A DNA stretch of 64,000 nt from an uncultured Chloroflexia bacterium. GTDB lineage: Bacteria > Chloroflexota > Limnocylindria > QHBO01. Made by a program: the position numbers and the translations under genes. The notes under the pieces were generated by a model. The model was not told where the DNA came from. It made no database searches and saw nothing but the letters and a program-made list of their open reading frames with translations. Shown one piece after another: positions 16,750-29,742 of the stretch. The stretch is taken from NCBI GenBank assembly GCA_963814375.1, contig CAWFCQ010000007.1, forward strand, positions 64,001 to 128,000. The letters are read 5' to 3'. Each line of letters begins with the position of its first letter. The first letter of the stretch is position 1.

Positions 16750-17994
16750 ATGCCCGCCCTCCGGCCGATACCCCGCGCCCACGTTGCGGCCCTGCTGCTC
16801 TCGCTGCTCGCCGTCCTGGCTCCCGACCTGACGCTGGCGCCCGCGATCGCCGGCGAGCCGCTGGGCGGGCCGAGGCCCATCGACGATTCGGCGCTGCCGG
16901 TCCCGCTCCGCGTCCCCCACGAAGCGGATACCCGGACCGCCGGCGCTCCGGCCCCGGCGCCGGCTCCCGCGCCCGCGCCGGTCCAGACAGAAGTTGCCGA
17001 CGCCGCTCGCTACAAGTCCGCGCTCGACGCCGCGCGCTCGGCGGGATTGGCATACGGGGTCACCTTCGCCGCGGTCCGCGACGGCGAGCTGCTGTGGGCG
17101 GGCGGCATGGGACGGCAGCGCGACGGGCGCACCGAGCTTGCGGCGGACAGCCCGCTCGTCATCGGCAGCGTGACCAAGACCTATGTGGCGGCCACGGTCC
17201 TTCAGCTGGTCGAGGAGGGGCGGCTCGGCCTCGATGACGCGGTGGGCATGCACCTGCCCGAGCTGCGCGGAGTGGCGGGCAAGACCACGGTGCGGCAGCT
17301 GCTCGATCACACCAGTGGACTCGCCGACGTCTTCAACGACACGACGCGGAAGGGTCTCGAGGAGCATCCGGAGCATGCCTGGACGACCGAGGAGGTGCTG
17401 GGCTCGCTCCACGCCCCGTGGTATCAACCGGGCGAGGGCTGGGCGTATGCCAACACCAACTACTACCTGCTCAGCCTCATCGTCGAGCGCCTCACCGGCG
17501 CCACGCTGGCCGATGAGCTCGAGCGCCGCTTCTTCGGCCCGCTCGGGATGGAGGCGACGCGCATCCTGACGCCGGCCGACGCCACGGGCCCCCTGGCGCC
17601 TGCTTGGACCACGATCTTCTGGGGCTCCGGGGCGATGAGCGCCTCCGCCGCCGACGTCGCGCGCTGGGGTGACGCCCTCTACGGCGACAGCCTGCTATCG
17701 CCGACCAGCCGGCGCGCGATGCTGGACCTCAACGACAACGACTACGGCCTCGGCGTGCAGCGTATCGATCTGCCCGGGCTCACCGGCTACGGCCACACCG
17801 GCCTGCTGAACACCTACACCACGCTGCTACTTCACCTGCCGACCGAGCACGTGACGCTCGCGCTGCTCGTCAATCGCAGCGACGTCGACCTGTTCGGCAT
17901 GCTCCTCGCCCACCCCGCCAACGGTGGGCCATCGCTGCTCGAGCTCGCCATCGGCCACGAGCTCGTGCCGCCCGAGGAGCCTCAGTCGCCGTAG
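16750..17994 (+). CDS. Secreted serine hydrolase, beta-lactamase class C / D-Ala-D-Ala carboxypeptidase-like
   Basis: GSVTK (SxxK), YANTNY (YxN), GHTG; signal-like N-terminus and an (AP)n linker. Confidence 0.88.
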   Translation: MPALRPIPRAHVAALLLSLLAVLAPDLTLAPAIAGEPLGGPRPIDDSALPVPLRVPHEADTRTAGAPAPAPAPAPAPVQTEVADAARYKSALDAARSAGLAYGVTFAAVRDGELLWAGGMGRQRDGRTELAADSPLVIGSVTKTYVAATVLQLVEEGRLGLDDAVGMHLPELRGVAGKTTVRQLLDHTSGLADVFNDTTRKGLEEHPEHAWTTEEVLGSLHAPWYQPGEGWAYANTNYYLLSLIVERLTGATLADELERRFFGPLGMEATRILTPADATGPLAPAWTTIFWGSGAMSASAADVARWGDALYGDSLLSPTSRRAMLDLNDNDYGLGVQRIDLPGLTGYGHTGLLNTYTTLLLHLPTEHVTLALLVNRSDVDLFGMLLAHPANGGPSLLELAIGHELVPPEEPQSP

Positions 17995-19647
17995 AGGATC
18001 TCGCGGATGACGGGCATCGGCGGGGTGCCGTGGCTGATCACCGATTCGAGGAATGGCCGCCATGAGAAGGCGTCTCCCGACCGGCGGCGAGCCTCGCGCT
18101 CGAGCTCGGTCATCTCCACGCTTCCCGAGGAAGTAGGAGCACAGCTGGGTCGAGCTGAGGCGCGCGCGGTTCCACTTCTCGGCCGCCTCGGAGCGCTCCT
18201 GGAATCCACCCTCGACCATCAGCGCCATCGCCTCGTCCTCGGTCATGGACCCGGTGTGGATGCGGATGTCCATCAGCGTGTTGGTGGTGGCGCGCAGGAA
18301 GTACTTCCAGTGGGCGAGCATCAGCGCCGGATCGTCGGCGCCGTAGCCGGCGTCCATCATCACCTGCGTCACGTACACCGCCCAGCCCTCGGCGAAGACG
18401 CCGGAGCCGAAGACGGCGCGCGCGAGCGAGGCGCATCGGTTCGACCAGGCCAGCTGGAGGTAGTGTCCGGGAACTGCCTCGTGGATGGTGAGGACCCGGA
18501 GGGCGCGGCTGTTGTTCTCGCGCAGCATCGACTCCACCTGCTCCTCGCTCCAATCCTCGGGCGGCGGGGTGATGGCGAAGAAGCTGTCGAGGCCCTTGTC
18601 GAGCGGCCCGGGCGGGATGAGCATGGCGCCGCCGAAGGCGCGCAGGAACGGCGGGGTCCAGATGATCTGAAGCGGCTCGTCCGCGAGGCCGATGAGGTCG
18701 CGCTCGCGGATGAACGCCTCGATGCGCTCGTGCTCGCCGCGGCAGAAGTCGAGCAGATCGTCGGCCTTCGGGTGGTCCTGGCCGATGGCATCGAGCACGC
18801 GACGGGTGAGCACGTCGCCGTCGTCCGGCATCGGCTCGTCGCCGACCCAGGTCGGCCACAGCTCGCGCGCGATGCGCAGCATCTCGGCACGGATCTCGTC
18901 GTAGGCAGCGGACGCCCGTCGCTCCAGCTCGGCCGGCGTGACGGTGGCCTTGAGCGAGTGGTGGAACTTGCTGGCGTAGAGCTCGGCACCGAGGCGGAAG
19001 TCGCCGTCGGCCTTCGGCAGCAGCTCGTCGCGCAGCCAGACGGTGAACGCATCGATCGCCGCAGTCGCCCCGTCGGCCGCGGCGTCACGCGAGCGCGCGT
19101 CTGCTCGTCCGCATCGGCGGCCATCTCGACGGCGGTGCGGCAGAGGTCCGCGATCCCCGGGATCGTCTCGATCGTCTTCTCGGTGTGGAAGGTCGCGACG
19201 GCACGGCCACGACCGGAGCCGAGGTTCTCCCGCGCCGCGCCGAGGGCGTCCGGGATGCCCTCCATCCGCCCCGCCGCGCTGGCCAGCCGCTGGTCGAGCG
19301 GCGCGAACTCGCGCGTCAGCAGGCCGAAGAGGCCGGCGCCGAGAAGGTAGGTGTACGAGATCGGGTTCCATGAGAGCTCGTCGAGCTCCTCCTCGTCGAA
19401 TCGCAGCTCGTCGATGGTGGCGAGAAGGACGCGTCGATCGATCTCCTCCTCGCGGCTCAGTCCATCGGCCGCCTCGAGGTCCGACCGAGCCTCGGCCAGC
19501 CACGCGAGACGCGCGCGCGCCGGCTTCGGACAGGTCCGGCCAGCGATCGTCGTGCTCGTGGTTGCCCGCCTCGGTGGCGTGGATCGGGTAGAGACGGAAG
19601 AAGTCGGCGAAGAAGGCGTCCTGCGCCTCGGCGAAGCTCGATGTCAT
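17982..19647 (-). CDS. DUF885 family protein; several frameshifts
   Basis: HEAVPGHYLQ, FAEGWAVY, STQLCSYFLG; pieces spread over ORFs 17827..19695, 18369..19265 and 17982..18209. Confidence 0.85.
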
Positions 19648-19739
19648 CCGCGCATGGTGCCAGACGGCGCGACGGCCGCGATCGGTCGTTGGCAAGGCGC
19701 CGGGCGGGCCCGAGCTCGCTCACCGCGGTCGTGATCTGG

Positions 19740-19850
19740 CCCAGCGACGACGAGGCCGCTCGCGTCTAGAGCCGATCCGTGATGTCGCGACGACGAGATC
19801 GAAAGCTCCCGGTCGCCCTGTTGCGCCCGTCGCACGAGATTCCGCTCCAT
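19740..19850 (-). pseudogene. 5' remnant of an ECF sigma factor
   Basis: MERNLVRRAQQGDRE-AFD matches the N-termini of the neighbouring sigmas (MERELVQRAMHGDEEAFD), then homology stops. Confidence 0.65.
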
Positions 19851-19987
19851 CCCTGCCTCGTTTGCGGTCCCGAGTGGGTCCGCCTGCCATGTGTGAGTCG
19901 CGAGCCACCAAAGTCTCGGAATCGAGCCGCGGCGGCCAGCGAGCCGATCGCCGGATGAGTCCGACAGCCGTCCGCAGAATCGGCACG

Positions 19988-20834
19988 TCAGGTCCCCGAA
20001 CCGAATCGACTCGACATGGCCTCACGTTCGGCTCGCTCGGCCTCGGACGTTTCGGGCATGTACGAGCTGTAAATCACCACTCGCTGGCCCTCGATATCGA
20101 GGTAGATCCTGGTCGACCTGACCGGGACGGTGGTAGCGCCCAGCCAGCTCCGGAACTCGCCGCGGTCGCAGTCGGCGAAGTCGGTGCTCGGACCGTCACT
20201 CGATCATCTTCCCGCCGTAGCCGTCGAGCGTGACATCGACGGAACGTTGTCGACGTTGTGGGCCGAGCGCAAGGCCGGCGGCGCGGATCGTCGACCGTGG
20301 CCCGACGGCGGCGTGATCGCGCCGTCCAGCCACTGCCACGTCGAGGTAACCGGGTCATCGTCATCCCGATCCCGAAGCCCGTCGGGAACAGGGGTCGGCG
20401 ACCTCTGCTCACGCAGCCCTGCGCCGACCCAGCCGGCGGGCATGGTCAGCGTCGTGCCCTCGGGGAGGTACCTGCCATCGGGCCGCCTCGGTGGTCAGCA
20501 GGTAGGTCCCTGGCTCGAGGCTGCTATCGGTGAGGCGGGTGGAGTGGGTGTCGGATCCGGCGATGCATCCTCGATCGGGACCGCCGACACTTGGGGCAAG
20601 GAGATAGTTGTAGCCCAGCAGGGCTGCGACGACCACGGCGGCGGCGGCGAGGCCCAGCTTCATGGCGTTGTTCATCTCGGGAGACCTCCGCGCCGGCCAC
20701 CAGGCCGGGCGCTGATGTGTCGAAGGAAGCTCGGCGCGGATGGCATCGCGGACGTCATCGGGCAACGGCGTGTTGCCCTGGTAGTCATCGAGATAGCTCT
20801 CGAGCTGACCGATGAAGTCGTCGTTGCGTGTCAT
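19988..20834 (-). CDS. Putative anti-sigma / ECF partner membrane protein 1; multiple frameshifts, 3' end approximate
   Basis: MTRNDDFIGQLESYL...QRPAWWPARRSPEMNN, TM helix, C-terminal YLDIEGQRVVI; ATGA overlap with the sigma stop. Confidence 0.65.
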
Positions 20835-21380
20835 GCCGTGCCTCGCGTGACGATCGGCTGCAGATCGGCTTCGATCGCCGATCTGAGCTGCTGGAGTGCG
20901 TAGTGCAGCCGAGAGCGAGCCGTGCCGGCGGGCGTCCCCATCCGTTCGGCTGCCTCGGTCGGGCTCAGGCCCAGGTAGTGGACAAGGACGACGACCGTCC
21001 GATGCTCGACGCTGAGTCGCCGGAAGGCGCCGTCGAGCTGGTCCTGGTTCGCGATCAGTGAGGTCGAGTCCGGGACGCCCTCCCCCGATTCGAGGGAGCA
21101 GCCGCAGGTTGCCGCGCTGACGTCGTTCGCGGCGCGCTTCGGCGTAGCAGGCATGCACGAGAAGCCGATGGGTCCAGGCCTCGAACCGATCGGGATCACG
21201 CAGCTGCGGAAGATGCCGCCAGGCATCGAGCAGCGCCTGCTGGGTGGCGTCCTGGGCGAGGCTCGTATCACGCAGGATCCTGCGTGCCACGGAGTGCAGC
21301 GAGTCGCCGATGCGTCCGACGAGCTCGTCGAATGCCTCTTCGTCGCCGTGCATCGCCCGCTGGACGAGCTCGCGCTCCAT
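20831..21380 (-). CDS. ECF sigma-70 factor 1; frameshift near 21090
   Basis: Region 2 AQDATQQALLDAWRHL...RFEAW; region 4 GTPAGTARSRLHYA. Confidence 0.88.
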
Positions 21381-21427
21381 GCCTCACCCGCTGAGTGCGC
21401 TGACCGCGGTCTGCGGCCAATCAGTGA

Positions 21428-21458
21428 GTATGAGTGCGCTCGCTCGCCCAGCGTTCAA
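21428..21458 (-). promoter_or_regulatory. Putative ECF promoter TTGAAC-N18-CTCATAC
   Basis: Same motif and spacing upstream of three other genes in the window. Confidence 0.6.
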
Positions 21459-21465
21459 CCGCGGC

Positions 21466-22712
21466 TCAGGGGTTGATCTCGATCGCCTCGACGATCCCGC
21501 GCAGCTCTTCAGCTCCGCATCCGGACGTCGCTGAACCAGAAGGCGTCGATATGATGCCGTCGCCATCCAGCATGGATGCATCCAGCCTCGCGTGCTCGTT
21601 GATGATCGGCCTTCGACGGTCGAGCATGCGAGAACCGCCAGCCGCCGGCGAGCTCGGGCCCTGAAGCAGGCCGCGATGTAGTTCGGTAATTCGCGGGAGC
21701 TCCGCATCCGTGACGTCGCTGAACCAGAAGGCGTCGATCATGATCCGTTGCCCCTCCACATCGAGTATCCAGACCTCGTCGTGCTCGTTGATGATGGCCT
21801 CACGGGTCCCGAGCACGTTCGAGAATCTCGCCAGCCGAGCGCAGTCGCCGTCGCCCCCTTCGAAGCTGTACTCGACGTGCTTACCGGCGTAGCCGGAGAG
21901 GGTGACGTCGGTGATCGCGGACGCATCGGTGAAGGGCTGCGCAGCGAGACCTTCGGCAAGCTCGTCGACCGACGGACCGAGCGGCGGGTCCATCTCTTCA
22001 GCGCCCGCGCATGCGTCCGCGGCGAGGTTGGGCACGATCGTGACGATGATGCCGCGCCCTCTCGGCGGGTCGTACGAGACCTGGTAGAGGGCGGCCCCGT
22101 GGATGCTGTTTCCCCCCAGATCCCCCAGTCATCGGTGAGCGGCACGGAGACCTGGATCGGGAAGGGGTCGCCGATGATGTACGTGCCTCTGTCGGAGCCG
22201 ACGGAGCGTGAACCCGCATGCCGGCAAGGTCGTCGAGCGCGGCGTCAGCTGCGCGTAGGCGACTCGGTCGCGGCGCCGACGAAGAGAGAACCGGGTCACC
22301 AATGCCGCCCTCTTGCCAGATGGCGAGGGCGTCCGAGGTGAACTCGAGCTGCACGTTCTGCACCGTGGATCCGTCCGGCATCGCACGGTCTCCGCCGAGA
22401 ACGGGTGGACGAGGGCCTCGGCAGCGCGCCGGCCGCCGGACTGTGCGGCGCCGCGTCGTTCGCGCTCGCCGAAGCTGCCGCACGGCGACGAAGGCAATGC
22501 CGACCGCCAGCACGCTGATGGCCGCGGCGGCCAGCCCGAACCGCATCGTTGTTCATGGTTGCAGTCCTCCGCGCCGGCCACCACGTGGCGCGGCGCTGGG
22601 GGGTCGCGTCGAGCTGATCTAGCACGGCGTCGAGGACGCGGTCCGCCGATTCGTGCTCGTCCGCACTCAGCCACGACCGGACGATGCGCGTCACGTCGCG
22701 ATCGGTGCTCAT
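21466..22712 (-). CDS. Putative anti-sigma / ECF partner membrane protein 2; multiple frameshifts and an internal duplication
   Basis: MSTDRDVTRIVRSWL...TPQRRATWWPARRTATMNN, TM helix, C-terminal WILDVEGQRIMI...ELRGIVEAIEINP. Confidence 0.65.
21511..21845. repeat. Degenerate tandem duplication of about 140 bp (21511-21650 vs 21698-21845)
   Basis: agctccgcatccg..gacgtcgctgaaccagaaggcgtcgat and cgtgctcgttgatgat each occur twice; the first copy is full of indels. Confidence 0.75.
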
Positions 22713-23257
22713 TGGGCTACCTCCCGCATCGGTGGGCGAGCGTCGGCGTCGAGCGCCGCGCGCAGCCCGCGCATCGCGTAGTGAAGTCGAGAATTGACCG
22801 TCCCGACCGGGATGCCGAGCACCTCGGCAACCCGCTCGAGCGGCAGGTCGAGGTAGTGGCGCAGGACCACTACCGCGCGGTGTTCAAGGGAGAGCCGCCG
22901 GAACCCGCTCTCGAGCTGATCGCGGTCAACGACGGAGTCGATGCCGTCCGCCGCCATCGGCTCGTCAGCCGGCAGAAGGCGGAGGTTGGGTGCCCAGCGA
23001 CGTTGCTTTCGGCCCTCGGCATAGCAGGCGCGCACGAGGAGCCGGTACGACCAGGCCTCGAAGCGAGCCGGATCGCGCAGCTGCGGAAGGTCTCGCCAGA
23101 TGGTCAGCAGCGCCTGCTGCGTCGCATCCTCGGCGAGGTCGAGGTCGCGCAGGATCCTGCGCGCCACGGCGAGGTACCGATCGGCGATGCCGGCGGCAAG
23201 GTCGGCATAGGCCCCCTTGTCGCCACGCTGAGCTCGCACCACCAGGTCGGTATTCAT
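22709..23257 (-). CDS. ECF sigma-70 factor 2 (intact)
   Basis: AEDATQQALLTIWRDL, GIPVGTVNSRLHYA; 182 aa. Confidence 0.93.
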   Translation of the reverse strand: MNTDLVVRAQRGDKGAYADLAAGIADRYLAVARRILRDLDLAEDATQQALLTIWRDLPQLRDPARFEAWSYRLLVRACYAEGRKQRRWAPNLRLLPADEPMAADGIDSVVDRDQLESGFRRLSLEHRAVVVLRHYLDLPLERVAEVLGIPVGTVNSRLHYAMRGLRAALDADARPPMREVAQ

Positions 23258-23306
23258 CGCCTCATCCGCATGGGCGGCATCGGCTCAGACCGATGCGCTT
23301 CATACG

Positions 23307-23338
23307 GTATGGGTGATTGGCGCCGATGGGAACTTCAA
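23307..23338 (-). promoter_or_regulatory. Putative ECF promoter TTGAAG-N19-CCCATAC
   Basis: Shared motif upstream of sigma 2. Confidence 0.55.
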
Positions 23339-23374
23339 AGTTCGGCGGCGCCGACGGCGGACGCGCCGGGAGGC

Positions 23375-24647
23375 TCAGGCCGGTTCGGACCGCTCCTCGG
23401 GTGGCTTGGCCTCGTCGTCGCCCGACGCGGCGTCCTCGGCCAGGCGGTCGGCGGCGAGCGCGACGACCTCCTCGGGCGGGGCGTCGGGCTGCTCGCTGCG
23501 CACCTCCTCGAGAACCTCCTCCAGCTCGGCCTTCGGCGCGTCCTCGATCGTTCGCAGGTTGACCGCGTAGTTGAAGAAGACGTTCAGGACCGCGAAGATC
23601 GGAATGGCGAAGAGGGCACCCCACAGCCCGGCAATCTGTGCCCCGACCAGCAGGCTCACCAGCACGAGGATCGGATGCATTCCGAGGGCGTCGCGCATGA
23701 GCTTGGGCTGGAAGTAGTTCACGAGCACGGTCTGGACGACGAGGAGCAGGGGCGCGACGACGATCAGCCATTCAGGTTTGAAGATCGCGGTCGCCAGGAT
23801 CGGCGGCACCAGGGCCAGCGGCGGGCCGAAGAACGGGATCAGCATGGCCAGCGCCGAGGCCACCACGATCAGGAAGCCGTACGGAAGACCGACGAGCAGC
23901 ACGACCGCGATCGTGAGCGCCGTCTGGATTCGCGGCCAGGACGACCTGCGCTCGCAGGAATCCGCCGAAGGCCGTCGAGACGGTGCGTTCGAGGATCTCC
24001 GCCTCTTCCGCGTATCGGTTCGGGACGATCCGATTCATCCTGGCGACGATCGCCGTGCTGTCGGCGAGCATGTAGAGGCTGAGGATGATCACGAGCACGA
24101 GCGCTCCGAGGATCGCAACGGTGACGGCGGGCGCCTCCCCGAGCGCCGACTGCGCCAGCCGCAGCGCGGTCGCCTCGACGTCGCGGTAGAGGACGACCAG
24201 GTCCGGCGCAAATTCGCCGAATGAGATCGAGCTCTGCCAATCGGCCAGGGTGGCCTCGATGCGCTCACGAGTCTGCGGGAAGTCCGAGGCCGCCTCCCCA
24301 ACCGACGCGCCGATGGCCGAGGCCGCATAGAAGAGGAGAATCCCGCTGCCGACCAGGGTCGCGGCGTAGACGATGCCGACCGCGACACCTCGCCGCAGGC
24401 CTGCGCGCTCCACGAGCCACGCCACCACCGGCGACAGGACGAAGGCAAGCAGCCAGGCCATGAACACGATGAGGAAGATCTGCGCGAAGCCGCCGAGGAC
24501 CTGAAGGAGAAGGCCGAACAGCAGCAGGCCCACGTAGATCGTGCCCACGATGAGCAGGGCGGACAGCCACCAGCGGTCGCGCCGTCGCCGCGCGCTCGTG
24601 TCCTTCGCTCGGTTGTTTCCGGCCGGCTTCGCCGTTTGCTTCGCCAT
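23375..24647 (-). CDS. AI-2E family transporter; frameshift near 23930
   Basis: LLAFVLSPVV, FGGFLRAQ, IPFFGP, LGMHPILV motifs across ORFs 23772..24737 and 23375..23902. Confidence 0.87.
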
Positions 24648-24726
24648 CTCGTGGCGCAGTCTGCACGTCGCTGTCCAGCTCGGCAGTGCGCGCAGAACGA
24701 GCCCCGCTTCCGTGGGCTCAAGTTGC

Positions 24727-24758
24727 GCAGGGCGCAACCAATGGCGGTTGCGCCCTGC
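24727..24758 (-). terminator. Hairpin downstream of the amidase gene
   Basis: GCAGGGCGCAACC-aatggc-GGTTGCGCCCTGC, perfect 13-bp stem. Confidence 0.55.
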
Positions 24759-24766
24759 CGTCCTAG

Positions 24767-26341
24767 CTAGGGCCCGATCGACGGGATGAACGTCGGCGGC
24801 ACGCGGACCATCGTCGCCTGCTCGAAGTCGTAGGCGAACGCGATCAGATCGGCCTCACTGAACTGTCCGCCGATGAACGAGACCCCGATCGGCAGAACGT
24901 CGTCGGCGTAGCCGGCGGGCACCGTCACGTTGGCCCAGCCGGTGATCGCCGATGGAGTCGACGAGCCGATGAACGGCGAGCCGTCGCTCAGGTCGCCGCC
25001 GACCGGATCGGTCAGCCAGGCCGGCCCGTTCGTCGGCGCGATGATCGCGTCGACGCCGGCGAGCGCCTCGGTGAGGGCGGTCTCGGCGATCCCGTCTGCC
25101 TCGGCGCGGATGGCGGCACATGCGGCGTCGCGGCCGTTCGTTGCCTCGGCCAGCTCGAAGATCTCCGAATCCCACGGGCCCTCGAGCTCCGGGTTGGCCT
25201 CATTGAAGTCGATGACGTCCTGCAGCGTCTTCGGGTATCCCACGCCGGTGTACGTCGCGAAGTACGCCGGCAGATCGGCCTTGAACTCGCACAGCAATGC
25301 GTCGAACTCGGGACCGAAGGAATCCTCGATGGCGACGTCGACCTCGACCACGGTGGCGCCCTGGGCTTCGATGGCGTCGACCGTGGCGTCCATGACGGCC
25401 GCCACGTCCGCGTCGAGGACCTCGCCCTCCGAGATGTAGGTGCCGTCGCGCCACACGCCGATGACCGCCCCCTCGAGCGCATCGGCGTCCAGGGATCCGG
25501 TGTAGTCGGCAGGCGTCGCCGCCATCGCGCCGAGGAGCACGGCTGCATCGGTGACGTTGCGCGCCATCGGACCCGCAGTGTCCTGCTCGGATGAGATCGG
25601 GATGATGCCCTCACCGCTGAGCAGGCCAAGCGTCGGCTTGATGCCGACGATGCCGTTCGCGCCGGAGGGGCATACGATCGAACCGTCGGTCTCGGTGCCG
25701 ACCGCCGCGACGGCGAGGCTCGCCGAGACAGCCACACCCGAGCCGGAGCTGGAGCCGCACGGGTTGCGGTCGAGGACGTAGGCCAGGTTCGTCTGGCCGC
25801 CGACGCCGCTCCAGCCGCTCGACGACGGGATCGAGCGGAAGTTCGCCCACTCGGAAAGGTTCGCCTTGCCGATGATGATGGCCCCGGCCGCTCTCAGCTG
25901 CTCGATGATGTCTGCGTCGGCGGGTGTGCTCCCGGCCAATGACCACGAGCCGCCGGTGTTCGGCATGCCGGTCGTGTTGATGTTGTCCTTCACGATGATC
26001 GGAATCCCGAGCAGCGGTCGATCGTCGCCACGACGCCGGGCCTTGTCGGCCGCGCGCGCCTCGGCGAGGGCCGTCGGGCTCACGGTGATGACCGCGTTGA
26101 GCATCCCGTCCAGCTTCTTGATCCGATGCAGATAGAACTGCGTCAGCTGCACCGCGGTCAGCTTGTGGCTGTCCATCAGCGCCTGGAGCTGCGGGATGGT
26201 CGACGCATCGACGTCGACCCCGCGGACCGTGGTGGAGGTCGGTTTCCTGCCCAGCGCAACTGGCGCGGCGATCGCCGACAGGGCGAGCAGCAGCGCCAAC
26301 AGGATGACAAGACCGATTGACCGTCGGGCGGGACCGTTCAT
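24767..26341 (-). CDS. Secreted amidase (amidase signature family)
   Basis: VKDN, GSSSGS, GTETDGSIVCP; signal peptide; AGGAG-like context upstream not assessed. Confidence 0.92.
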   Translation of the reverse strand: MNGPARRSIGLVILLALLLALSAIAAPVALGRKPTSTTVRGVDVDASTIPQLQALMDSHKLTAVQLTQFYLHRIKKLDGMLNAVITVSPTALAEARAADKARRRGDDRPLLGIPIIVKDNINTTGMPNTGGSWSLAGSTPADADIIEQLRAAGAIIIGKANLSEWANFRSIPSSSGWSGVGGQTNLAYVLDRNPCGSSSGSGVAVSASLAVAAVGTETDGSIVCPSGANGIVGIKPTLGLLSGEGIIPISSEQDTAGPMARNVTDAAVLLGAMAATPADYTGSLDADALEGAVIGVWRDGTYISEGEVLDADVAAVMDATVDAIEAQGATVVEVDVAIEDSFGPEFDALLCEFKADLPAYFATYTGVGYPKTLQDVIDFNEANPELEGPWDSEIFELAEATNGRDAACAAIRAEADGIAETALTEALAGVDAIIAPTNGPAWLTDPVGGDLSDGSPFIGSSTPSAITGWANVTVPAGYADDVLPIGVSFIGGQFSEADLIAFAYDFEQATMVRVPPTFIPSIGP

Positions 26342-26469
26342 CGCAGGAGAACCTCCACGCGGGCGGGGCGTGCGCCGCTCATCGGGCGCAATTGGACGCT
26401 CGCGGAGGCAGCAGGTTTCGTGCCGCAACCCGCAGTCTCTGGCGGCGTGACAGCGGCTACGCTGACAGC

Positions 26470-26907
26470 GTGACGATTCAGCGGATGGACAACGTTGGGA
26501 TCGTCGTCGACGACCTCAAAGCTGCCATAGCGTTCTTCGTCGCACTGGGCCTGGAGCTGGAGGGCGAGGCGACGGTCGAGGGACAGTCGGTGGACCGCGT
26601 CGTAGGGCTCGACGGTGTCCGCAGCGACATCGCCATGCTGCGGACCCCGGACGGCCACGGCCGGATTGAGCTGAGCAAGTTCCACTCTCCGCCGGCGACC
26701 GCCGCCGAGCCGAACGCCCCGGTGAACCGGCTCGGCACGGGTCGCATCATGTTCGCCGTCGACGACATCGAGCAGGTCCTTGCCCGCGCGGAGGCGCTCG
26801 GCGCCGAGCTCGTCGGCGAGGTCGTGCAGTACGAGGACACATACCGGCTCTGCTACATCCGCGGCCCGGAAGGAATCCTCGTGGCGCTCGCGGAGGAGCT
26901 GAGCTGA
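26470..26907 (+). CDS. VOC/glyoxalase family protein
   Basis: RMDNVGIVVDDL...RLCYIRGPEGILVALAE; TACGCT 6 nt before the GTG. Confidence 0.9.
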   Translation: MTIQRMDNVGIVVDDLKAAIAFFVALGLELEGEATVEGQSVDRVVGLDGVRSDIAMLRTPDGHGRIELSKFHSPPATAAEPNAPVNRLGTGRIMFAVDDIEQVLARAEALGAELVGEVVQYEDTYRLCYIRGPEGILVALAEELS

Positions 26908-27417
26908 TGGAGACGTGGCAGGCCATCAACTCCGTGCGTGTCGTTCGAGAGTTCACGGATCAACCGCTCGATGAGGCGCACGTCGAACGCATCCTCAACG
27001 CCGGCCGGCGGACGGGCAGCTCGAAGAACCGTCAGATGTGGGCCTTCATCCACATCACCGACCGCGACCTCCTGGGCGAGCTGGCCGCGGTGGGTCGATA
27101 CGCGGGGCACCTTTCGGGTGCGGCAGCAGCGGTGGCGCTCGTGACGCCGGAGCCGGCGAGCCCATCGGTCATGTGGGACATCGGGCGGGCGGCGCAGAGC
27201 ATGGTCCTGGCCGCCTGGGAGCTCGGTATCGGCAGCGTGCCGGCAACCGTGTACGACCACGACATGGCGCATCGGCTGCTGGGGCTGCCCGAAGATCGGC
27301 GGTGCGACTTCCTGCTGTCGTTCGGTTACCCGGCCGACCCAGAGCCTGCTCACAGCGCCGAATCGATCAGGTGGACGCCTCCCGCTCGAGGAGGTCGTCC
27401 ACCGCGAACGCTGGTAG
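26907..27417 (+). CDS. Nitroreductase family protein; frameshift near 27340-27380
   Basis: VRVVREF, SSKNRQMW, DIGRAAQSMVLAAWELGIGS, FGYP; natural end VHRERW* at 27417. Confidence 0.85.
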
Positions 27418-27432
27418 GACCGATGCCGGCAG

Positions 27433-28337
27433 CTACGGCTCGATCTGGATCGAGTCCACCATCGCCCGGAGCTCGGCCTGGTGCTGCGCCGACGTCCCTT
27501 CGTAGTCATCGGCATGGATCACCACGCGGATGCCATCGACGTCGAGGATCCAGAGGTGCCATCGCTGGCCGGCCCCCTGGGCGTAGATTCCCGGATCCCA
27601 TGGGCGGTAGAACGCGCATCCGGTGAGATCCGCTGGCGTCTGAAGGTCCATGTACTTGCCGGAGTAGCCATCGAGCGTGATGTCGACGGGAGCTGTCGTG
27701 TCCAGCAGCGGATGCTCCGCGAGCGCGTTCGCAAAATCATCCACGCTGGGGCCAACTGGGATGTCAGGGTTCGCCTCGGCGCACGGATCGCTTGCCAGCC
27801 AGCTGCCCCGCATGAAGAGGAGGCTCGTACCGCCAGGCGGAGCTGCGCCCCCGTCAGTCAGCCAAAACACATTCTCGTCACTTTCGAACTGGGTCCAGCC
27901 CTCCGGGACGGTGAACGTGATGCTGATCTCGGCTGCCTCGGTGGGGTCGCAGTCGGGCCCGCTCGGCTCCGGACAGGCGCCCCACCCGCCGGCGTTCGCA
28001 AACGGATGGGCAACATAGGTACCCGCAGCCAGGCGCCCTGTATGGAGGGCAAGGGGAGTGCTGTTGGAATGGGCGTAGGGCCCGGATCTCCCAGGTTCTG
28101 ACCCGGTCCCAGGAATCTGAGGCCGATGAAGGCGACGACCAGGACGGCCGCGGCCGCCATGGCGATCTTCGCGGTGTTGTTCATTTCGGGAAGCCTCCGG
28201 CCGAGCCAGCCGGCCCGGCGCTGGGGGGTCGCGGGGAGCTGATCGAGCACGGTATCCAGGACAGCGTCCGGGAGCGCCGTGACGCCCTCCTCCAGCCACG
28301 ACCGAACGGTGCGCGTGACGTCGCGATCGGTGCTCAT
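27433..28337 (-). CDS. Putative anti-sigma / ECF partner membrane protein 3; frameshift near 28070
   Basis: MSTDRDVTRTVRSWL...TPQRRAGWLGRRLPEMNN, TM helix, ectodomain ending WILDVDGIRVVI...ELRAMVDSIQIEP. Confidence 0.75.
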
Positions 28338-28882
28338 TGCGCAGCCTCCCGCGCAGTCGGCCGCGCGTCGGCGTCGAGCGCCGCGCGCAGCCCGCGCATC
28401 GCGTGATGAAGTCGAGATCGGGCCGTCCCGGCCGGGACGCCGAGCGTCTCGGCGACCTGGTCGAGCGGCATGTCGAGGTAGTGGTGCAGCACCACCACCG
28501 CGCGATGATCGATGGAGAGCCGCCGGAATCCGCGCTCGAGCTGGTCGCGATCGACGACCGCGCTCGAGCCATCCGCCTGCATCGGCTCAACGGAGGGAAG
28601 CAGGTGCATGTTCGGCGTCCATTGGCGCGATCGGCGTCCCTCGGCGTAGCAGGCGCGCACGAGGAGCCGATACGACCAGGCGTCGAAGCGCGCCGGATCG
28701 CGGAGCTGCGGAAGGTCCCGCCAGATCGCAAGCAGCGCCTGCTGCGTCGCGTCCTCGGCGAGCTCGATGTCGCGCAGGATCCTGTACGACACCGCATGGA
28801 GCCGGTCGCCGGCGGCCACGGCGAGGCTTGCGAAGGCCTCTTCGTCACCACGCTGCGCTCGAATCACGAGATCGGTATCCAT
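28334..28882 (-). CDS. ECF sigma-70 factor 3 (intact)
   Basis: MDTDLVIRAQRGD, AEDATQQALL, GVPAGTARSRLHHA. Confidence 0.93.
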   Translation of the reverse strand: MDTDLVIRAQRGDEEAFASLAVAAGDRLHAVSYRILRDIELAEDATQQALLAIWRDLPQLRDPARFDAWSYRLLVRACYAEGRRSRQWTPNMHLLPSVEPMQADGSSAVVDRDQLERGFRRLSIDHRAVVVLHHYLDMPLDQVAETLGVPAGTARSRLHHAMRGLRAALDADARPTAREAAQ

Positions 28883-28929
28883 GCCTCTTCCGCTGGGGCC
28901 GGGACTTCGCAGGGTCCGGCCCTCACACC

Positions 28930-28960
28930 GTATGGGCGCGTCGGTCGAGAACGGACTCAA
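28930..28960 (-). promoter_or_regulatory. Putative ECF promoter TTGAGT-N18-CCCATAC
   Basis: Shared motif upstream of sigma 3. Confidence 0.55.
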
Positions 28961-28969
28961 TCTTCGTGG

Positions 28970-29095
28970 GTCGGCAAGAAGCATCTCGAGCACGTGTACG
29001 ACAAGCTGAAGGTCCGGAGCCGGACGGAGGCACTGGCGCGAACCGGGCGCTCGGTGGGAGCTTCCCCGGGCCCGGCGGTTCAGGGTCAGGACTGA
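28970..29095 (+). pseudogene. 3' remnant of a LuxR-type HTH regulator
   Basis: KKHLEHVYDKLKVRSRTEALAR is a typical LuxR C-terminus; no N-terminal part upstream. Confidence 0.7.
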
Positions 29096-29127
29096 CGCAG
29101 CCGTTCTCGTGCGGCGGACACGTAGAA

Positions 29128-29154
29128 GCCGGGCGGAGCGTGGCTCCGCCCGGC
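29128..29154 (-). terminator. Hairpin terminator after the cupin gene
   Basis: GCCGGGCGGAGC-gtg-GCTCCGCCCGGC, followed by TTCT on the minus strand. Confidence 0.6.
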
Positions 29155-29166
29155 GTCGGCGCGAGG

Positions 29167-29742
29167 TCAGTGACCGCCCATGTCACCGCCTTCCATGGCG
29201 CAATGGTTCTGGTTGGCATCGGCGATCGAAAGCGGTCCATCCGCCGGGAAGTCGAGGAAGGTGGCCACGAGGATTGTCTCCACCGTGGTGCTCGGATTGA
29301 GTGCGCTGTGGACGTTGCTGCCCGGATCGACGAACGCGGTGCCCGCCGGATAAGGTCGGTGCACGCAGTCGCTGGCCTGGATGTAGACCAGCTCGCCCTG
29401 GGCGACATTGACGATCACCGGGCCGGGGTGCGTGTGCCACGGGAACTGCGCGCCCGGCTGAATGGTGAATCGCGCCACAACCGTGCGCGAAGCCTCGGGC
29501 ATGTTGAGGACAGTGGTGCCCTTGCCGTCGAGCTTGACTTTCAGCTGCGCGCCTACCCGATCGGTGAACTGCGCCCGCGGTGTCAGCACCTCGACCGCGA
29601 TCGGTACCGGTGCCGCACGGACCAGGCCGGGCAGAACCGTGAGCGCAGCCAGCGCCATGCCCAGCGTTATCGCGAGGACGAGGCCGGCGACCGCAGCGGC
29701 AGTCCGACGCGACTTGGGCTGAATGCGGGTCAGGGTAAACAT
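29167..29742 (-). CDS. Secreted or membrane-anchored cupin domain protein
   Basis: PWHTHPGP...GEL...FVDPG..VHSA cupin motifs; N-terminal hydrophobic helix. Confidence 0.85.
   Translation of the reverse strand: MFTLTRIQPKSRRTAAAVAGLVLAITLGMALAALTVLPGLVRAAPVPIAVEVLTPRAQFTDRVGAQLKVKLDGKGTTVLNMPEASRTVVARFTIQPGAQFPWHTHPGPVIVNVAQGELVYIQASDCVHRPYPAGTAFVDPGSNVHSALNPSTTVETILVATFLDFPADGPLSIADANQNHCAMEGGDMGGH

Follow-up and report, generated by a model that had tools for sequence, protein, structure and literature searches.

We analyzed a 64,000-nucleotide stretch of the genome of an uncultured Chloroflexia bacterium (the window; positions 64001-128000 of contig CAWFCQ010000007.1, here C7, in a 2.52 Mb assembly of 8 contigs with 69-70% GC). 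The closest named relatives of this genome are metagenome-assembled genomes of Chloroflexota, several of them labeled Candidatus Limnocylindria. Its minus strand carries three gene pairs, each consisting of an extracytoplasmic function (ECF) sigma factor gene followed by a partner gene (Table 1). ECF (group 4) sigma-70 factors consist of sigma-2 and sigma-4 domains only and are about 180 amino acids long. The upstream genes of the pairs are of this group, and sigma 2 and sigma 3 match PF04542 and PF08281/PF04545, that is, both the sigma-2 and the sigma-4 domain. The sigma stop codon (TGA) and the partner ATG overlap as ATGA in each window pair, and 112 of 115 members of the wider family have such an overlap (ATGA or GTGA); the partner gene thus follows the sigma gene directly and is co-translated with it. 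Inside each partner gene, just before the segment encoding its only membrane helix, a GGAGG sequence is followed nine nucleotides later by an in-frame ATG. Our results indicate that this element is under selection at the nucleotide level, and it probably acts as a second translation start that yields a sensor-only isoform of a putative anti-sigma factor.

The three internal sites read CGG AGG TCT CCC GAG ATG (gene 1, minus strand 20690-20673), CGG AGG ACT GCA ACC ATG (gene 2, 22571-22554) and CGG AGG CTT CCC GAA ATG (gene 3, 28199-28182). An initial annotation of this DNA had located the GGAGG and ATG of each gene, and our reading of the sequence agreed with it at every coordinate. It was likewise right that the spacer is 9 nucleotides in all three genes with differing sequence, and that AAC AAC follows each ATG. 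Because the three genes are paralogs, the agreement of three out of three copies is no test in itself. The end of the 16S ribosomal RNA contains CCTCC (GGATCACCTCCTTTCT), and each internal site thus combines a Shine-Dalgarno sequence, an in-frame start codon and a matching 16S tail. For comparison, GGAGG stood exactly 9 nucleotides before an in-frame internal ATG in 10 of 8578 cases in the inner parts of 1934 long open reading frames (ORFs) of this genome with high GC at third codon positions.

The family was gathered by profile searches that are blind to codons. DNA was obtained from 153 loci, and two loci of unpublished genomes were removed after a first look, in which CGG or TGG, AGG, nine nucleotides and ATG or GTG were found in 45 of 46 members (the two loci later removed were among the 46). 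Codon-by-codon alignment of every profile match then gave 207 distinct nucleotide versions from 140 loci, 186 of which span the three key columns. The results showed that the arginine before the membrane helix is encoded by AGG in 165 of 178 cases (CGG in 6, CGC in 4 and AGA in 3), and that among all 84 columns the bias in synonymous codon choice is greatest here, at 4.19 bits. AGG accounted for 5 of 687 codons in the control arginine columns 9, 12, 25, 40 and 41 of the same genes, for 3.3% of 735 arginine codons of the family outside the junction, and for 8.75% of 42427 arginine codons in the inner ORFs of the window's own genome. The control columns are scrambled among CGC, CGG, CGT and CGA (column 41, for example, has CGC 46, CGA 30, CGG 26 and CGT 22), and divergence within the family has therefore been sufficient for synonymous turnover. 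The codon preceding AGG is CGG in 87 members and TGG in 74, the next commonest being ATG in 9, and GGAGG thus survives the exchange of arginine and tryptophan.

The interval between AGG and the start column is free of insertions and deletions in all aligned members. In the start column we counted ATG 161 times, GTG 10 times and TTG twice; other codons made up 14 entries among the twelve commonest. Where the residue at this position is valine, it is encoded by GTG in 10 of 11 cases, compared with 31% GTG elsewhere in the genes (binomial p 6.9e-5). GGAGG, exactly 9 nucleotides and ATG, GTG or TTG occurred together in 143 of the 186 members; 4 had GGAGG without a start codon, 13 had neither signal and 26 had a start codon without an exact GGAGG, 21 of the latter retaining GGAG, GAGG or AGGA. 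The two signals are linked with an odds ratio of 17.9 (Fisher p 3e-7, an overstated value, since the members are kin). Among divergent members, L144 has GGAGG in another codon register (ctG GAG Gga), and L142, L124 and L149 have a TTG start with a spacer of 6-7 nucleotides. The initial annotation had proposed a codon-level alignment of the family to look for AGG enrichment, fixed 9-nucleotide spacing and retention of the methionine, and the outcome agreed with its prediction on all three, more strongly than expected. There is thus selection on the internal start signals beyond that on the protein sequence.

The internal site carries an exact GGAGG in 147 of 186 members. At the canonical starts of the family GGAGG is found at 7 nucleotides in 50 of 115 members, and 63 of 115 have no exact GGAGG. 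GGAGG also peaked at a 7-nucleotide spacer (25 cases) among 542 ATGA or GTGA gene junctions, 51 of which had GGAGG in the scanned upstream window; a survey of ribosome-binding sites based on the first start in each ORF gave a weak signal. Read-through or termination-reinitiation in the sigma frame, ending at the internal ATGA, was considered as another route to the start and was rejected for lack of a signal: between the two starts, 75 of 119 members had an open +1 frame and 65 of 119 an open +2 frame. No split variants with a stop at the junction were found in the family, the shortened matches being locus ends or frame breaks, and no stand-alone copy of the ectodomain was found in the window's own genome at E<=0.01, all 4 matches lying inside family loci. 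As a hint from other anti-sigma partners of this genome, for which ORF picking was crude, a methionine before the helix was absent in 3 of four usable membrane partners.

A hairpin abuts the internal ribosome-binding site on its 5' side. Its two arms, located -37 to -29 and -23 to -15 relative to the internal ATG, stood out as strongly paired in accessibility profiles; they form a stem of 8-9 base pairs with one bulged base (the free third position of column 41) and a loop of about 4 nucleotides, the last pair of the stem falling on the base immediately before GGAGG. In 108 of 119 members the best-folding stem ended on that very base. The mean stem energy was -14.85 kcal/mol, compared with -10.89 kcal/mol after synonymous recoding, and 95% of members folded better than their own recoded versions (z below 0). 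Furthermore, the median hairpin z was -1.62 in members with both site and start (n=119) and 0.06 in members that have neither (n=10).

The stem is also visible in the codons and in their covariation. Alanine at column 46 is encoded by GCG in 92 of 92 cases and proline at column 45 by CCG in 75 of 82. Codon-pair bias was rejected as the cause at column 46, since alanine before CGG or TGG is encoded by GCG in 1114 of 2522 cases genome-wide; GCG fixation there is explained by the stem. CGC or CGT goes with GCG in 93 members and CGG goes with CCG in 7, while the pair CGG-GCG is absent among the 25 commonest codon pairs. In alignment A5 (131 sequences), 83.4% of cells were able to pair, compared with 24-54% when the partner was slid, and 41 cells carried double changes where 19.5 were expected. 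The covariation score was 0.226 against a shuffled mean of 0.171, and none of 500 shuffles reached the observed values. Distant members have quite different stem sequences, e.g., CGGGAC/GTCCCG. RNAalifold on the codon alignment returned only a 4-bp stem of -3.8 kcal/mol, and mutual information gave subfamily signals only; neither detected the hairpin, since the register is shifted by an inserted codon and by the bulge. A covariance model of the element, searched against the window's own genome, found the six family sites only, together with three marginal matches at E 0.35-0.55. An Rfam scan of positions 19500-29500 (E<=1) did not match the hairpin and gave one unrelated weak match at 25343-25434.

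Downstream of the start the message is weakly structured. Within ±300 nucleotides of the internal ATG, folding of 40-nucleotide windows was weakest at +5 to +10 (-6.8 to -7.2 kcal/mol at a GC of 0.58); the canonical start reaches -8.3 kcal/mol. Altogether, these results show that the hairpin, ribosome-binding site, spacing and start codon are selected at the nucleotide level and that they are lost jointly.

One further position upstream of the hairpin is conserved at the nucleotide level. Column 38 (window 28226-28224, 22601-22599 and 20717-20715, minus strand) is the codon before an invariant glutamine. It has A at its third position in about 70% of members, with CCA making up 68 of 88 proline codons, and this A is located 3 nucleotides before the hairpin, in the single-stranded flank ACCCCACA. 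Codon-pair bias was rejected here as well, proline before CAG being encoded by CCA in 45 of 588 cases genome-wide. The conserved A may signal a site of processing or of a start; alternatively, it may serve to prevent a run of C that could pair with GGAGG.

The protein encoded around this element was examined by structure modeling. A complex of sigma 3 with partner residues 1-51 was modeled with a score of 0.86, compared with 0.02 for the best control; in a rough calibration that used our own alignments, 116 of 157 solved complexes and 2 of 215 mismatched pairs came up to this mark. Three runs had at least 90% of contacts in common, with a predicted local distance difference test value (pLDDT) of at least 80 for the partner, and the modeled interface brought partner residues 2-42 together with sigma regions 10-61 and 111-169. 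As residues 2-42 are modeled on sigma, a product that begins at Met52 would be without the sigma-binding part, which agrees with the earlier proposal of a short form that lacks this domain. For the intact homolog P0008, AlphaFold (mean pLDDT 80.9) placed two short helices ahead of a membrane helix at 54-76; a linker of low confidence connects this helix to a well-modeled domain that runs from about residue 100 to 299. According to these models, the partners have one membrane helix after the predicted binding domain, followed by an extracytoplasmic domain.

No Pfam family was found in the five window partner pieces or in 7 of 8 full-length homologs, and the eighth homolog, P0135, matched only Sigma70_r2. 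The NCBIfam anti-sigma model NF052375 scored 23.4 bits, below its cut-off of 100. By structure, Foldseek related the P0008 ectodomain to PsbP/Mog1/DcrB/LpqN/Apa/MTC28-like folds (E 7e-5 to 1e-3, 11 chains at E<=0.001, target TM-scores of 0.38-0.54, sequence identity of 9-16%), a moderate likeness that says little about function. The 156 complete C-terminal parts fell into clusters of 127, 10, 6, 2 and 2 and nine singletons; the 127-member cluster shares the PsbP/DcrB/LpqN-like domain, and the remainder includes a beta-propeller-like type. Because the C-terminal parts fall into several clusters, the module of predicted binding domain, hairpin, site, start and helix is combined with different sensors.

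From the sequences and models, we propose that the partner is a single-pass anti-sigma factor, in which residues 1-51 would bind the ECF sigma factor, residues of about 54-76 would cross the membrane, and the remainder would form a linker and then an outside domain of roughly 200 amino acids. A complete second translation initiation region would be present in the messenger RNA (mRNA) where the coding sequence passes from the sigma-binding part to the membrane helix. It would consist of the hairpin, GGAGG (CGG or TGG plus AGG), a free 9-nucleotide spacer, ATG (rarely GTG or TTG) and a weakly structured, A-rich stretch. Ribosomes entering there would make a shorter protein with a Met-Asn start and a cytoplasmic tail of 5-6 residues, which would keep the membrane helix and the ectodomain and be without the sigma-binding domain. 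We infer that this short protein is made, and a selected internal translation start is, in our judgment, the probable explanation of the element.

What the short form would do is a more tentative matter. Because the full-length start is an ATGA overlap with the sigma stop and less often has a perfect GGAGG, synthesis of the short form is probably independent of sigma, and the short form is perhaps in excess. It might compete for signal, protease or partners with the full-length sensor and in this way modulate the switch, which is the role we favor; alternatively, the ectodomain itself might be the output of the operon. A two-output anti-sigma gene, with an isoform independent of the sigma-coupled form and probably in excess that acts as a decoy or co-sensor and sets the threshold and shut-off of the ECF response, is a reading to which we give somewhat less than even credence. 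The hairpin could make the isoform ratio responsive to upstream translation or to temperature.

Upstream of the sigma genes of the family (L003-L130), 40-47 nucleotides before their start codons, we found a two-box motif, (A)GATTGA(G/A), about 19-20 nucleotides, and CCCATAC, which is probably the autoregulated promoter of the ECF group. A variant, GTTGAAC...CTCATAC, is found at sigma 1 and its orthologs, and a variable GC hairpin is present in the leader 3' of the motif. No internal promoter of this type was found, as 0 of 130 partner 5' parts scored 10 or more, compared with a median of 20.7 upstream of the sigma genes. By default, therefore, we attribute both forms to the message initiated at this motif upstream of sigma.

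The best-surviving alternative is that the short form comes from its own mRNA, generated by an internal promoter of housekeeping type or by cleavage just 5' of the hairpin. The hairpin is placed where a protective 5' stem-loop would sit, and the conserved A and single-stranded flank described above precede it. However, the gene lacks an internal promoter of the family's own type, and the flank, judged by eye, is GC-rich without an evident -10 box. We regard this origin of the short form as unlikely.

A less probable explanation still is that the hairpin and GGAGG act only on RNA, for instance as a 5' stabilizer, with a bound 30S ribosomal subunit protecting the message and no useful short protein being made. 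In Bacillus, Shine-Dalgarno sequences are able to stabilize mRNA without starting a protein, and both the covariation of the stem and the conserved A of column 38, 3 nucleotides before it, would fit such a role. This explanation nevertheless leaves the in-frame start at a fixed 9 nucleotides and the exclusive use of start-capable codons unaccounted for, and the absence of an internal promoter of the family's own type counts against it too.

About as improbable, and marginally more so, is a programmed elongation pause, in which GGAGG would halt the ribosome at about 50 residues while the N-domain folds onto fresh sigma or membrane targeting is prepared. The in-frame location directly before the sole membrane helix fits this idea, as does the translational coupling of sigma and partner in nearly all members, and Shine-Dalgarno-like pauses have been proposed for Escherichia coli membrane proteins (Fluman et al. 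2014; PMC4359368). In that account GGAGG also occurs in coding regions near a membrane segment, but the pauses described there precede the second membrane segment or take place before the chain exits the tunnel, whereas here GGAGG occupies codons 47-48, ahead of the sole helix at codon 54, and is lost together with a start-capable codon at +9 nucleotides. A pause needs no start codon, yet ATG, GTG or TTG is found 9 nucleotides downstream in 143 of the 147 members with GGAGG, valine at this position is nearly always GTG, and the window of low structure after the ATG marks a start. Pausing could still be a side effect.

The weakest alternative, raised in the initial annotation, is a fossil junction where an anti-sigma module fused to the gene of a once independent secreted or anchored protein and the old signals persist; the occurrence of the same N-terminal module on several unrelated ectodomains makes a history of fusion plausible, and the short form begins like a signal anchor, but as a description of the present state this reading is contradicted and has almost no chance of being right, because AGG has persisted in 165 of 178 cases, in two taxonomic families and in divergent subfamilies, while synonymous sites elsewhere were randomized, and the hairpin has been preserved through compensatory changes.

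Several observations weigh against a selected internal start, or limit its reach. A start codon is absent at the position in 17 of 186 members, and the element is thus dispensable in some copies. Part of the pattern reflects protein-level selection, because Arg-Arg, Met and Asn are conserved as amino acids. All p-values are too small and the statistics overstated, owing to kinship among the family members. The hairpin of gene 3, the weakest of the three window copies, folded no better than shuffles (z -0.91), and the mean unpaired probability of GGAGG in a 160-nucleotide context was 0.28, compared with an overall mean of 0.35; a stable hairpin abutting a ribosome-binding site could hinder as well as help binding of the 30S subunit. 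The modeled complex may have passed through likeness rather than binding, because complexes of ECF sigma and anti-sigma factors have already been solved. No public sequencing run had more than a 0.14 share of the words sampled from the stretch, and the organisms are uncultured. Finally, the three window partner copies are all frame-broken relative to intact homologs. The initial annotation was right about the internal site in the three genes and needs one correction: in this assembly all of them shift frame downstream, gene 2 right after ATG AAC AAC. These breaks look like insertion or deletion errors of a long-read assembly rather than gene decay, since only 8 contigs make up the 2.5 Mb.

Co-transcribed single-pass anti-sigma factors of the RseA/RsiW type are known for ECF sigma factors. 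The window partners resemble them in that a partner overlapping the end of the sigma gene has a short cytoplasmic N-terminus, one helix and an outside domain, but differ in having no Pfam match, a predicted two-helix binding part of about 45 residues and a probable internal start. Short two-helix anti-sigma domains are known from the NepR/CnrY type, to which the very small helical domain modeled between the sigma-2 and sigma-4 regions is likened by model; in the partners, unlike in that type, this domain continues into a membrane helix and an ectodomain.

In bacteria, in-frame internal starts in infB, clpB and cheA give two isoforms per gene. As in these cases, the partner family has a ribosome-binding site and start inside the ORF and a predicted shortened product without one domain. 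It differs in being known comparatively only, and in involving a large family, a covarying hairpin that abuts the site, and an anti-sigma factor. To our knowledge, bacterial internal starts that give two proteins are mostly single cases or come from ribosome profiling of a few model species. In the present case, comparative genomics alone shows a probable internal start conserved across a large family. Two-isoform genes with in-frame internal starts have been surveyed in bacteria (Meydan et al., bioRxiv 10.1101/520783). Another example is the 'gene-in-gene coding' described for Fha of Vibrio cholerae, where a conserved intragenic start is reported to give a shorter isoform that cooperates with the full-length one (PMC13389060); Fha is a different protein in a different system, and in the partner family cooperation between isoforms is only hypothesized. 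Our literature search, with subscription journals outside its coverage, found no report of such an element in an anti-sigma factor.

The element is placed at the boundary between the predicted sigma-binding domain and the sensor of a putative anti-sigma factor. Provided that the short form is made, ECF signaling in these soil bacteria gains a component that is outside current models of stoichiometry and regulated proteolysis, and, should the two-output reading be true, this would be a previously undescribed layer of ECF regulation common to a class-specific family. Gene callers would give one of two likely products for each partner gene.

The features of the window are collected in Table 1, and the frame changes were placed by comparison with intact homologs. 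The tblastn alignment of P0082 with partner 3 covered 28337-28044 in frame -3 and then 28080-27439 in frame -2. P0086 matched partner 2 at 22712-22548 in frame -3 and at 22113-21658 in frame -2, and P0023 matched partner 1 at 20834-20499 in frame -3 and at 20614-20015 in frame -1. The N-terminal part of sigma 1 is in the ORF at 20409-21380 and its C-terminal part in the ORF at 20831-21271. Frame changes in the middle of genes were seen elsewhere as well, in a DUF885-like ORF (17827-19695), in sigma 1 (20831-21380) and in an AI-2E-type transporter (23375-24737).

Table 1. Features of the three sigma/partner pairs, in window coordinates.
Feature	Position	Strand	Basis or remark
Putative sigma-dependent promoter, pair 3 (GATTGA, spacer, CCCATAC)	28930..28962	-	Motif search
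ECF sigma gene 3	28334..28882	-	Sigma70_r2, Sigma70_r4_2; TIGR02937 61.5 bits, cut-off 42.9
Partner (putative anti-sigma) gene 3	27433..28337	-	Canonical ATG 28337-28335; frame change near 28080-28044 relative to intact homologs
Codons 1-51 of partner gene 3, predicted sigma-binding domain	28185..28337	-	Complex model with sigma 3
Hairpin 5' of internal ribosome-binding site, gene 3	28199..28221	-	8-bp stem, -16.4 kcal/mol, z -0.91
Internal GGAGG (CGG AGG), gene 3	28194..28198	-	Sequence read
Internal in-frame ATG (codon 52), gene 3	28182..28184	-	Followed by AAC AAC and membrane helix
Putative promoter, pair 2 (TTTGA, spacer, CCCATAC)	23307..23339	-	Motif search
ECF sigma gene 2	22709..23257	-	Sigma70_r2 and r4; TIGR02937 60.6 bits, cut-off 42.9
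Partner gene 2	21466..22712	-	Canonical ATG 22712-22710; frame broken after ATG AAC AAC and again further on
Hairpin 5' of internal ribosome-binding site, gene 2	22571..22596	-	-20.2 kcal/mol, z -2.18
GGAGG (22570-22566), 9-nt spacer and ATG (22556-22554), gene 2	22554..22570	-	Sequence read
ECF sigma gene 1, in two frames in the assembly	20831..21380	-	Sigma70_r2 match at C7:85120-85323
Partner gene 1	20015..20834	-	Canonical ATG 20834-20832; one frame change
Hairpin 5' of internal ribosome-binding site, gene 1	20690..20712	-	-17.8 kcal/mol, z -2.56
GGAGG (20689-20685), 9-nt spacer and ATG (20675-20673), gene 1	20673..20689	-	Sequence read

The genome holds six copies of the family, three in the window and three on contig C5. 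The latter form a second tandem array of three pairs (C5:178700-183400, L015-L018) with a more divergent N-terminal domain, and all three have TGG AGG or CGG AGG, 9 nucleotides and ATG AAC AAG. Relatives commonly have tandem arrays of 3-6 pairs as well, e.g., at C7:327-353 kb of genome G108 and C6:137-158 kb of genome G081. Of 301 genomes sampled from the class, 138 had the N-terminal module (a tally that includes six genomes flagged as unpublished), and in a phylum-wide sample the module occurred in 22 of 401 genomes, all from two families of that one class. Among 1.84 billion representative proteins, 1703 clusters (50% identity) matched at E<=0.001, with proteins typically of about 290-300 amino acids and alignments beginning at residue 1. 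One member, L005, is in a metagenome-assembled genome labeled Candidatus Methylomirabilota, which may reflect a binning error or transfer. In P0135 (520 amino acids), P0106, P0133 and P0038, the partner module begins at residue 82-189, and the Sigma70_r2 match of P0135 is in front of the module, within the first 80 residues; proteins of this type may be sigma/anti-sigma fusions or gene calls that run through a lost stop.

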